DNA from: Mobula hypostoma | Lineage: Eukaryota | DNA: 64,000 nt | Assembly (NCBI RefSeq): GCF_963921235.1 | Contig: NC_086097.1 | Span: forward strand, 169,634,001-169,698,000 | Reading direction: 5' to 3' | Part shown: positions 59,175-64,000 of the stretch, in pieces | Layout: the number at the start of each line of letters is the position of its first letter | How positions within the stretch are numbered: the first letter of the stretch is position 1 | The notes under the pieces: generated by a model | Database searches by the model: none | The model's input: only the letters and a program-made list of their open reading frames with translations | What the model was told of the DNA's origin: nothing | Made by a program: the position numbers and the translations under genes

Positions 59175-60170
59175 CAGAATCAGGTTTATTATCACCAGCA
59201 TGTGATATGAAATTTGTTAACTTGGCAGCAGCAGTTCAATGCAATACATAATATAAAAGAAATAATAATAATAATTAAATCAATTACAGTATACATATAT
59301 TGAATAGATTAAAATTGTGTATAGAACAGAAATACTATACAATAAAAAGGTGAGGTAGTGTCCAAGGATTCAATGTCCATTTAGGAATCGGATGGCAGAG
59401 GGGAAGAAGCTGGTCCTAATTTGCTGAGTGTGTGCCTTCAGGCTTCTGTACCTCTTAGCTGATGGCAACAGCAAGAAAAGGGCATGCGCTGGGTGCTGGA
59501 GGTCCTTAATAATGGACGCTGCCTTTCTGAGACACCACTCCTTAAAGATGTCGTGGGTACTTTGTAGTCTAGTACCCATGATGGAGCCGACTAAATTTAC
59601 AAACCTCTGCAGCTTCTTTCAGTCCTGTGCAGTAACCCCTCCATACCAGACAGTGATGCAGCCTGTCAGAATGCTCTCCATGGTACATCTATAGAAGTTT
59701 TTGAGTGTACTTGTTGACATACCAATTCTCTTCAAACTCCTAATAAAGTATAGTCGCTGCCTTCCCTTCTTTATAATTACATTGATATTTTGGGACCAGG
59801 TTAGATCCTCAGAGATCTTGACACCCAGGAACTTGAAACTGCTCACTCTCTCCACTTCTGATCCCTCTGAGGATTGGTCTGTGTTCTTTCGTCTTACCCT
59901 TCCTGAAGTCCACAATCAGCTCTTTCGTCTTACTGATGTTGAGTGCCAGGGTTGTTGCTGTGACACCACTCCACTAGTTGGCATATCTCACTCCTGTACG
60001 CCCTTTTGTCACCATCTGAGATTCTACCAACAATGGTTGTATCATCAGCAAATTTATAAATGGTATTTGAGCTATACCTAGCCACACAGTCATGGTATAT
60101 TGATAACAGAGCAGTGGGCGAGGCACACACCTCTGAGGTGCATCAGTGTTGATCATCAGCAAGGAGGAGC
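59175..60170 (-). mobile_element. Rex1/Babar-type LINE 3' part
   Basis: [38 protein letters not shown]; tail AATAAACCTGATTCTGA; same family as 6550-7921. Confidence 0.9.
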
Positions 60171-60814
60171 TGTTAAAAGCTGTCTTTATCACCCTATTTA
60201 CCAGTGATGTATATCCTTCGGGGAAGGAAATCTGTTACCCTGACCTATATGAAACTACAAATGTATTCAATGCGCTTAACTATTAAATTCCCTCATGAAT
60301 ATGACACTTTGATGTATACAGACTGCTACATCCTTCACATGGACCGTTGCAATTCAGGAAGGTGGCCCAACATTGCCTTTTCAAGGGCATTCAGGATCTG
60401 GGCCTTGACAATATCACTCACAGCCCATGAGTGAAAGAGCAGCAGCCGAGAAGCTGTACCTATCTGAAATGATCTCTTTTGCACAGAGTGGGCTTGTCAT
60501 ATCGCTGCTTGCCCGTTTTACTTGCATTTGTAACAGGTGGTAATTGAAAGCCTGCTGGGCAAAGTGATGCCCAGATCATGGTGGGTTGTGTTCCCAAAGA
60601 AAGGTTTGTGTATTGATTTTGCACAATATAAAGCTATTTTATTTGTGTCAAGAGATGTGAGTGTATTTTTTTACATTATTTCCATGTGAACAACTTTAGT
60701 CTGTACTTCAAATTTTTGGATTGTGAATTGTGAACTTTGTAAGAGTGAATTTCTGTAACCCAATACTCATTACACAGGGTCATCTATAAATAACAATAGA
60801 GTCTGAAATGGTTT

Positions 60815-63800
60815 TAGAAACATAGAAACATAGAAAATAGGTGCAGGAGTAGGTCATTTGGCCCTTCGAGCCTGCACCGCCATTTATTATGATCATGGCT
60901 GATCATCCAACTCAGAACCCCACCCCAGCCTTCCCTCCATACCCCCTGACCCCCATAGCCACAAGGGCCATATCTAACTCCCTCTTAAATATAGCCAATG
61001 AACTGGCCTCAACTGTTTCCTGTGGCAGAGAATTCCACAGATTCACCACTCTCTGTGTGAAGAAGTTTTTCCTAATCTCGGTCCTAAAAGGCTTCCCCTC
61101 TATCCTCAAACTGTGGCCCCTCGTTCTGGACTTCCCCAACATCGGGAACAATCTTCCTGCATCCACCCTGTCCAATCCCTTTAGGATCTTATACGTTTCA
61201 ATCAGATCCCCCCTCAATCTTCTAAATTCCAACAAGTACAAGCCCAGTTCATCCAGTCTTTCTTCATATGAAAGTCCTGCCATCCCAGGAATCAATCTGG
61301 TGAACCTTCTTTGTACTCCCTCTATGGCAAGGATGTCTTTCCTCAGATTAGGGGACCAAAACTGCACACAATACTCCAGGTGTGGTCTCACCAAGGCCTT
61401 GTACAACTGCAGTAGTACCTCCCTGCTCCTGTACTTGAATCCTCTCGCTATAAATGCCAGCATACCATTCGCCTTTTTCACCACCTGCTGTACCTGCATG
61501 CCCACTTTCAATGACCGGTGTATAATGACACCCAGGTCTCATTGCACCTCCCCTTTTCCTAATCGGCCACCATTCAGATAATAATCTGTTTTCCTATTTT
61601 TGCCACCAAAGTGGATAACTTCACATTTATCCACATTAAATTGCATCTGCCATGAATTTGCCCACTCACCCAACCTATCCAAGTCACCCTGCATCCTCTT
61701 AGCATCCTCCTCACAGCTAACACTGCCACCCAGCTTCGTGTCATCCGCAAACTTGGAGATGCTGCATTTAATTCCCTCATCCAAGTCATTAATATATATT
61801 GTAAACAACTGGGGTCCCAGCACTGAGCCTTGTGGTACCCCACTAGTCACCGCCTGCCATTCTGAAAAGGTCCCGTTTATTCCCACTCTTTGCTTCCTGT
61901 CTGCTAACCAATTCTCCACCCACACCAATACCTTACCCCCAATACCGTGTGCTTTAAGTTTGCACACTAATCTCCTGTGTGGGACCTTGTCAAAAGCCTT
62001 TTGAAAATCCAAGTATACCACATCCACCAGTTCTCCCCTATCCACTCTACTAGTTACATCCTCAAAAAATTCTATGAGATTCGTCAGACATGATTTTCCT
62101 TTCACAAATCCATGCTGACTTTGTCCGATCATTTCACTGCTTTCCAAATGTGCTGTTATCACATCCTTGATAACTGACTCCAGCAGTTTCCCCACCACCG
62201 ACGTTAGGCTAACCGGTCTATAATTCCCCGGTTTCTCTCTCCCTCCTTTTTTAAAAAGTGGAGTTACATTAGCCACCCTCCAATCCTCAGGAACTAGTCC
62301 AGAATCTAATGAGTTTTGAAAAATTATCACTAATGCATCCACTATTTCTTGGGCTACTTCCTTAAGCACTCTGGGATGCAGACCATCTGGCCCTGGGGAT
62401 TTATCTGCCTTCAATCCCTTCAATTTACCTAACACCACTTCCCTACTAACATGTATTTCGCTCAGTTCCTCCATTTCACTGGACCCTCTGTCCCCCACTA
62501 TTTCTGGAAGATTATTTATGTCCTCCTTAGTGAAGACAGAACCAAAGTAATTATTCAATTGGTCTGCCATGTCCTTGCTCCCCATAATCAATTCACCTGT
62601 TTCTGTCTGCAGGGGACCTACATTTGTCTTTACCAGTCTTTTCCTTTTTACATATCTATAAAAGCTTTTACAGTCCGTTTTTATGTTCCCTGCCAGTTTT
62701 CTCTCATAATCTTTTTTCCCCTTCCTAATTAAGCCCTTTGTCCTCCTCTGCTGAACTCTGAATTTCTCCCAGTCCTCAGTTGAGCCACTTTCTCTGGCTA
62801 ATTTGTATGCTTCTTCTTTGGAATTGATACTATCCCTAATTTCTCTTGTCAGCCACGGGTGCACTACCTTCCTTGATTTATTCTTTTGCCAAACTGGGAT
62901 GAACAATTGTTGTAGTTCATCCATGCAACCTTTAAATGCTTGCCATTGCATATCCACCGTCAATCCTTTAAGTGTCATTTGCCAGTCTATCTTAGCTAAT
63001 TCACGTCTCATACCTTCAAAGTTACCCCTCTTTAAGTTCAGAACCTTTGTTTCTGAATTAACTATGTCACTCTCCATCTTAATGAAGAATTCCACCATAT
63101 TATGGTCACTCTTACCCAAGGGGCCTCTCACGACAAGATCACTAATTAACCCTTCCTCATTGCTCAAAACCCAGTCCAGAATAGCCTGCTCTCTAGTTGG
63201 TTCCTCTACATGTTGGTTCAAAAAACTATCCCGCATACATTCCAAGAAATCCTCTTCCTCAGCACCTTTACCAATTTGGTTCACCCAATCTACATGTAGA
63301 TTGAAGTCACCCATTATAACTGCTGTTCCTTTATTGCACTCATTTCTAATTTCCTGTTTAATACCATCTCCGACTTCACTACTACTGTTAGGTGGCCTGT
63401 ACACAACTCCCACCAGCGTCTTCTGCCCCTTAGTGTTACGCAGCTCTACCCATATCGATTCCACATCTTCCCGGCTTATGTCCTTCCTTTCTATTGCGTT
63501 AATCTCTTCTTTAACCAGCAACGCCACCCCACCTCCCCTTCCTTCATGTCTATCCCTCCTGAATATTGAATATCCCTGAACGTTGAGCTCCCATCGCTGG
63601 TCACCCTGGAGCCATGTCTCTGTGATCCCAACTATATCATAATCATTAATAACAATCTGCACTTTCAATTCATCCACCTTATTACGAATGCTCCTTGCAT
63701 TGACACACAAAGCCTTCAGGCTTGCTTTTACAACTCTCTTAGCCCTTATACAATTATGTTGAAAAGTGGCCCTTTTTAATGCTTGCCCTGGATTTGTCGG

Positions 63801-64000
63801 CCTGCCACTTTTACTTTTCTCCTTTGTACTTTTTGCTTCTACCCTCACTTTACACCCCTCTGTCTCTCTGCACTGGTTCCCATCCCCCTGTTGTGAACTA
63901 ACCTCCTCACGCCTAGCCTCTTTAATTTGATTCCCACCCCCCAACCATTCTAGTTTAAAGTCACCTCAGTAGCCCCCACTAATCTCCCTGCCAGGATATT
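60815..64000 (-). mobile_element. Young, nearly intact CR1 LINE: ORF1 C-terminus, ORF2 and 3' UTR; continues beyond the window
   Basis: ORF1 end NILAGRLVGATEVTLN* (64000-63950); ORF2 with APE endonuclease and RT; tail (TTTCTATG)n at 60815-60836. Confidence 0.97.
60912..63965 (-). pseudogene. CR1 ORF2 (endonuclease-reverse transcriptase), one continuous frame with a single premature TGA at 61539-61541
   Basis: ORFs 61539-63944 and 60912-61511 are in the same frame, joined by GEVQ*DLGVIIHRSLKV; motifs NARS, ITETW, GDFN, SDH, YRPVSL, DFQKAFD, GVPQGS, FADD are all intact. Confidence 0.93.

Follow-up and report, generated by a model that had tools for sequence, protein, structure and literature searches.

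Two-ORF LINEs are described as reaching their second reading frame by reinitiation or by stop-start coupling, and the part of PMC3708506 that we searched treats the question as open. L1 (reinitiation) and SART1 (coupling at UAAUG) also rely on a bicistronic LINE RNA with ORF2 made at a lower level, and both release a separate ORF2 protein. Frameshifting in LINEs has a stated precedent, because the Dictyostelium elements TRE5-A and TRE3-A, which are APE-type non-LTR retrotransposons, are stated to require a -1 frameshift for ORF2 (PMC5911963, in the portion covered); these elements differ from CR1 in lineage and in ORF1. Viral U_UUA_AAC sites, such as that of IBV, and the gag-pol logic of retroviruses provide a second point of reference, and the arterivirus nsp2TF frameshift is stimulated in trans by nsp1-beta together with a poly(C)-binding protein (both in the part of PMC5009743 searched). 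The CR1 group is the dominant retrotransposon in most vertebrate species, according to the part of PMC13343379 covered.

Our literature searches found no paper on frameshifting in CR1; the original CR1 descriptions and the Repbase notes lay outside their scope, so an earlier suggestion is possible. Term searches of the accessible parts of individual papers returned no instance of "frameshift" in PMC13343379, PMC4316615, PMC3708506 and PMC3905857, its use for mutations only in PMC2734521 and PMC4255032, and its use for LTR elements only in PMC7175516. The searched part of PMC5009743 does not contain "CR1", and that of PMC4120745 does not mention ribosomal frameshifting at the CR1 junction.

We analysed a CR1 copy at the edge of a 64,000-nt stretch of the Mobula hypostoma genome (hereafter the window; Table 1). 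The window by itself barely reveals the phase of ORF1, of which it holds the last codons. We therefore used the neighbouring genome stretch, where the frame that carries the esterase motifs ends in Leu-Asn-stop; this confirms the proposal of the first-pass annotation that the heptamer stands in X_XXY_YYZ phase directly against the ORF1 stop. Its further readings were also borne out: a TGA precedes the -1 frame, which is open from 63965 for 808 codons on the minus strand, the first true Met of the 801-aa, TTG-started ORF is codon 211 (codon 216 counted from the heptamer) and lies within the endonuclease, and the AUG just past the ORF1 stop is out of frame and soon terminates. The upstream TGA limits entry to the -1 frame to the slip site. 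The copy itself is broken, given the premature TGA at which the 801-aa ORF terminates, and it is 5'-truncated in ORF1, with 145 open codons remaining. Just 3' of it, the window contains pieces of a second, broken RT-encoding retroelement (59370-60234, minus strand).

Table 1. Features of the focal CR1 copy, in positions of the window
Feature	Position	Strand	Remarks
ORF1 3' end and TAG stop	63950..64000 (TAG 63952-63950)	-	SGNH esterase ORF1; start lies beyond the window
Slippery heptamer T_TTA_AAC	63953..63959	-	In ORF1 phase; abuts the stop
TGA shutting the -1 frame	63966..63968	-	3 codons upstream of the heptamer; in 29/30 copies
G-motif	63933..63942	-	GGGGG at +11 to +15 and GGG at +18 to +20 past the heptamer; candidate stimulator
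Out-of-frame AUG	63946..63948	-	8 codons; in the focal family only, among the five own-genome families examined
-1-frame linker, 258 nt, without ATG or stop	63702..63959	-	From the heptamer to the first conserved endonuclease Asn; 29/29 copies
G-motif, second copy	63879..63890	-	Join of focal ORF1 and junction to F4-family ORF2; the F4 alignment begins there
APE endonuclease match	63102..63662	-	PF03372; first in-frame ATG, 63314-63312, lies inside the domain
Reverse transcriptase match	61590..62243	-	PF00078
Premature TGA	61539..61541	-	Same frame runs on for 208 aa, to 60912
8-bp tandem repeat, element 3' end	60821..60836	-	

Judging by its ORF1 homologues, its domain layout and its 3' end, the element is a CR1 LINE with an esterase ORF1. 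The full ORF1 of a sister copy (L023) is 311 aa long and matches Pfam PF13472 (E 8.6e-17), with Cys pairs visible at the N-terminus of its translation, and the closest named ORF1 proteins come from rays and skates. The -1 frame, ORF2, matches PF03372, PF14529 and PF00078, that is, APE and RT, and the Pfam domain search returned no protease match in it. We take the 8-bp tandem repeat at the 3' end to be of the CR1 type. In this layout the element resembles the vertebrate CR1 elements with a type IVB ORF1 (zinc finger, leucine zipper and esterase; CR1 subgroup 7) described in the part of PMC4120745 covered: both carry an esterase and an N-terminal Cys cluster in ORF1, encode APE and RT in ORF2 and end in a short tandem repeat.

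The first look at the focal family returned 1,246 candidates, of which 40 copies were scored (the top 40, at 97-100%) and the best 30 examined. The heptamer and stop are exact in 28 of these 30 best-matching copies, which were chosen by junction similarity and are thus informative for the AUG question and not for conservation. In many of the 30 the ORF1 frame is lost upstream, as expected of frequent 5' truncation. The 258-nt linker is free of stops and ATGs in the -1 frame in every copy with a placeable endonuclease (29/29), and the other two frames hold several stops common to the copies. The first-pass annotation had allowed that an in-frame AUG might have been lost by this copy; with an ATG in 0 of 29 copies, decay of the focal copy is excluded as the reason for the missing AUG.

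The focal endonuclease is 93% identical to that of another family in the same genome, F4, and ORF1 only 72%, with the join at the second G-motif (63890). By this comparison the focal family is a chimera, or recombinant, carrying the ORF2 of F4. It has dispensed with F4's two ATGs and kept the -1 phase, yet it amplified. Two loci (L194 and L203) look the part of the other parent, having the same ORF1 end and a 240-nt linker. Since the join falls in it, the G-motif may be a swap point between ORF1 and ORF2 modules.

Four more families from the same genome were fetched with divergent ORF1 queries (30, 30, 20 and 35 loci), together with 32 metagenome loci, of which 13 reach the ORF1 end and 10 match the junction at no more than 2 mismatches; the bird or amniote origin of the metagenome loci is inferred from protein similarity. 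The heptamer and stop are exact in 16/30, 28/30, 16/20 and 26/34 distinct loci of the four families and in 7/13 metagenome loci. For codon comparison we defined 11 lineages, comprising the modal codon of each of the five own-genome families and six single metagenome loci with a stop at the expected codon. The last three ORF1 codons read NNT, TTA, AAC in 11 of 11 lineages, and the codon before Leu-Asn ends in T throughout, although it encodes six different residues. Neighbouring conserved Leu, Gly and Ala columns use 3-5 codons, and ORF1 DNA identity is 54-77% among eight of the 11 lineages. The heptamer is thus fixed at silent sites across lineages, and the conservation of heptamer and phase on which the first-pass annotation had made its proposal depend was found in all 11. 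Dual coding does not explain this silent-site fixation, since the -1 frame is closed immediately 5' of the heptamer in four of the five own-genome families. The ORF1 stop is TAG or TAA in 11/11 lineages and never TGA; TGA was seen at one additional locus, L125. Copies of family F3 differ in the length of a G-run immediately 5' of the heptamer (L061, L075, L081, L082), and in some of them ORF1 runs into the ORF2 frame as a single ORF, as it does in the ray protein P0038; these fusions may be copy mutations or homopolymer errors.

A genome-wide count of exact matches to heptamer-stop-7 nt-GGGGG-2 nt-GG gave 19,348, compared with 4 when the pattern was reversed as a control, which is more than chance would yield. 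Of 79 homologous proteins whose catalytic motif lies near the C-terminus, 73 terminate in Leu-Asn; such ends occur in sharks, rays, coelacanth, frogs, turtles, squamates and a hummingbird, the frog, turtle, squamate and coelacanth elements being represented by protein sequence only. Residues that have no T-ending codon (E, Q, K, M, W) precede Leu-Asn in just 2 of 84 homologues and occupy the next two positions in 36/84 and 35/84; this control depends on position, as the same residues are also rare at -6 and -7 (3/84 each). The junction, about 30 nt long, is a real and deeply conserved feature.

The distance from heptamer to endonuclease varies in length and keeps its phase. Its modal values in the five own-genome families are 258, 201, 330, 204 and 216 nt; seven of eight metagenome loci have 117 (three loci), 123, 159, 189 or 270 nt, one locus being out of frame, and the first 30 genome pattern matches add 147, 150, 162 and 240 nt. 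Linker lengths, modal or single, therefore span 117-330 nt, each a multiple of 3, and the two non-ORF2 frames are full of stops where counted. In-frame copies number 29/29, 11/22, 21/30, 14/19 and 17/32 in the five families, the 11/22 belonging to F2, which is old and decayed. Among the first 30 genome pattern matches the endonuclease could be placed in 27, 22 of them in frame; in 14 of these 22, one of which is a broken copy, no ATG precedes the endonuclease. From these counts, an AUG is dispensable for ORF2 in many copies. Where an ATG is present, its codon varies (4 and 20, 16 or 60, 19, 39, or 5). Stop and start overlap as TAATG in 11 of the 12 modal F4 copies and in L124; of eight bird-type loci, five carry an in-frame ATG at codon 4 or 5, four of them at codon 5. 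Near the ORF1 stop, an AUG in the ORF2 frame is present in F4 and some bird-type loci and absent from F1, F2, F3 and F5, and no start-codon position near the stop is conserved among families. The motif UGGGA, which marks calicivirus-type reinitiation, occurs upstream of the stop at positions that differ between families, with no common distance.

We also searched for distant ORF1 homologues with a profile against 50%-identity representatives, and among the best 150 matches retained the 94 in which 20-45 aa separate the catalytic motif from the end. In 57 of these 94, the last three residues are compatible with X_XXY_YYZ. Among the 54 homologues that do not end in Leu-Asn, a compatible tripeptide stands at the very end in 18 and one residue earlier in 9, further offsets giving 0-4 each, against a background of 3.2% (502/15,606) elsewhere in the same proteins. 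The alternative ends are Gly-Asn (12), Lys-Asn (3) and Gly-Phe or Phe-Phe, with the Gly-Asn, Lys-Asn and Gly-Phe classes known from protein sequence alone. In a quick esterase tree built with these columns omitted, the classes are interleaved: Lys-Asn lies beside Gly-Asn, Gly-Phe and Phe-Phe are nested in Gly-Asn rows, and Leu-Asn appears in several clades. Several distant homologues have their stop one or more codons past the compatible tripeptide, and 16 of the 94 have no compatible tripeptide even by a lenient internal search. Distant relatives thus appear, from these protein ends, to swap in other slippery heptamers. Five proteins (P0206, P0213, P0232, P0188 and P0203) end in Ser-Asn or Glu-Asn; these ends might reflect slip sites close to the canonical form in which the first triplet is imperfect.

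The sole DNA for a class other than Leu-Asn comes from L178, which has T_TTT_TTA in ORF1 phase at the place of the heptamer; its 363-nt contig ends 2 nt later, before the ORF1 stop and ORF2. Three protein scans and one pattern scan of viral contigs yielded no DNA of the Gly-Asn or Lys-Asn class, a scan of prokaryote genomes gave 2 loci, one of them of use, and a Gly-Asn protein searched against the focal species' own genome found just family F5 among 20 loci fetched. L178 is filed under a bacterium (a Stenotrophomonas scaffold) and is probably animal contamination; a second CR1-like ORF1 under a bacterial name, the Pseudomonas aeruginosa protein P0021, is likewise probably derived from host contamination.

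Downstream of the heptamer, all 13 lineages have GGGGG at +11 to +15, including at positions that are silent in the -1 frame, and G is found at +18, +19 and +20 in 10, 12 and 11 of the 13. A spacer 2 nt longer has 866 genome matches (control 3), mostly longer G-runs among the 100 listed. The G-rich run of the first-pass annotation is a linear motif at a fixed distance and not part of a predicted stem or pseudoknot. Folding of the 100 nt after the heptamer, with no direct pseudoknot model, gave a z-score below -1 in only one of 13 lineages. When G-quadruplexes were allowed, the energy fell clearly in two of the 13 and slightly in another two, without a common fold, and a duplex scan identified no pairing partner of the G-run at a common downstream position. 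A C-run at a conserved ORF1 Pro-Leu/Ile motif (Pro mostly CCC), about 630-670 nt upstream of the heptamer, was seen in L023, L065, L092, L145, L111, L114, L119 and L124. It is the only recurring possible partner of the G-motif and possibly a simple reflection of the protein motif.

These observations are best explained by programmed -1 ribosomal frameshifting, to which we assign a probability of about 0.8 on sequence grounds. The gag-pol-like ORF1-ORF2 fusion put forward in the first-pass annotation thereby gains support from silent-site fixation, phase and an AUG-less ORF2. Most ribosomes would end at the ORF1 stop and free the 311-aa ORF1 protein, while a minority would slip back one base, re-pairing UUA-AAC as UUU-AAA, and would then traverse the variable, charged linker into the endonuclease and RT. 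The slip itself and its rate are inferred from sequence. An unbroken copy would yield an ORF1-linker-endonuclease-RT fusion of about 1,320 aa, and the outcome would be a surplus of structural protein over enzyme, as in gag-pol systems. Like the viral U_UUA_AAC sites (PMC5009743, part searched), the junction places the same heptamer, in the same phase, at the close of a structural ORF, ahead of a polymerase ORF in the -1 frame that lacks its own start. Unlike them, it belongs to a non-LTR retrotransposon, its stop is immediate, no conserved downstream stem or pseudoknot is predicted, and ORF2 has no protease match.

The least certain step is stimulation. Lying 10 nt past the heptamer, the G-motif would stimulate the slip without a local stem, perhaps together with the stop next to the slip site. 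In arteriviruses the stimulator is a linear C-rich motif about 10 nt downstream, and nsp2TF is a possible analogue in which a protein-bound stimulator takes the place of an RNA fold; the CR1 motif, by comparison, is G-rich and a candidate stimulator.

Several features count against frameshifting: no conserved stem-loop or pseudoknot, as found at most -1 sites, is predicted, F4 and bird-type loci carry in-frame AUGs, 16 of 94 homologues lack a compatible tripeptide, and F2 has just 11 of 22 copies in frame. L1 ORF2 translation is AUG-independent, and a similar termination-reinitiation, in which ribosomes resume a few nucleotides further on at a near-cognate codon such as the codon-6 TTG and produce a separate ORF2 protein, could make the junction a termination or restart signal. 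Such a restart also requires a frame open from the stop onward, as observed, and would fit the lack of a predicted pseudoknot and the heptamer that always adjoins a TAG or TAA stop in vertebrate-type lineages; moreover, the ORF2 mechanism of two-ORF LINEs is unclear according to the part of PMC3708506 covered. However, it predicts neither an in-phase X_XXY_YYZ nor swaps among different slippery heptamers, families have neither a start codon near the stop nor an upstream UGGGA at a common position, and in several distant homologues the stop is displaced from the compatible tripeptide. It is the main rival, and we consider it unlikely as the whole explanation, and reinitiation may operate alongside frameshifting, as some families carry an in-frame AUG beside the stop. 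Coupling at UAAUG or a nearby AUG could instead be the normal route, with the heptamer a by-product. In its favour are the TAATG of F4 and L124 and the codon-5 ATG of bird-type loci, and coupling at UAAUG is reported for SART1 (PMC3708506, part covered). Such an AUG is, however, missing from the focal family and several others, and the focal family spread after shedding those of F4, so stop-start coupling is excluded as the general route, is very unlikely as the normal one, and may act additionally in some families. In place of the separate ORF2 protein of SART1 and L1, CR1 conserves a slippery heptamer and often has no AUG.

Two further readings were weighed. If the esterase fold required a Leu-Asn end, the nucleotide match could stem from shared ancestry or from a non-decoding RNA signal for packaging or recombination. 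The lineages are related, so the 11 are not 11 independent trials, the join of the chimera sits in a G-motif copy, and the protein-level control is position-dependent (2/84 at -3 against 3/84 each at -6 and -7). Neighbouring silent sites have nevertheless diverged freely, distant homologues have other end residues, and AUG-less ORF2 would be left with no translation route, which makes this account slightly less probable even than coupling. The lowest credence goes to an ORF2 made from spliced or separately started RNA, or to AUG loss through copy decay. Some low-depth joints do occur in contigs of four runs; among the 15 joints listed of 27, no GT..AG joint crosses the junction, and no indel at the heptamer is among the rows listed, both being weak points because they concern contigs whose RNA status is guessed. 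Decay is contradicted by the 0/29 copies with an ATG.

In its broadest form, our proposal extends -1 frameshifting to esterase-type CR1 LINEs throughout the animals, whose endonuclease-RT would be fused to ORF1 by this route; in vertebrates a linear GGGGG exactly 10 nt past the slip site, bound by a host G-run protein or by ORF1p, would drive the shift in place of an RNA fold. We regard this version as a possibility, and a rather doubtful one. If it is true, a protein-gated switch would control the dominant transposon of most vertebrate genomes. Frameshifting at the junction, if true, would mean that the CR1 ORF2 protein has been mis-annotated from an internal Met, that the active CR1 enzyme bears a covalent ORF1 esterase module, and that vertebrate cells host thousands of frameshift cassettes with an unusual and unstructured stimulator.
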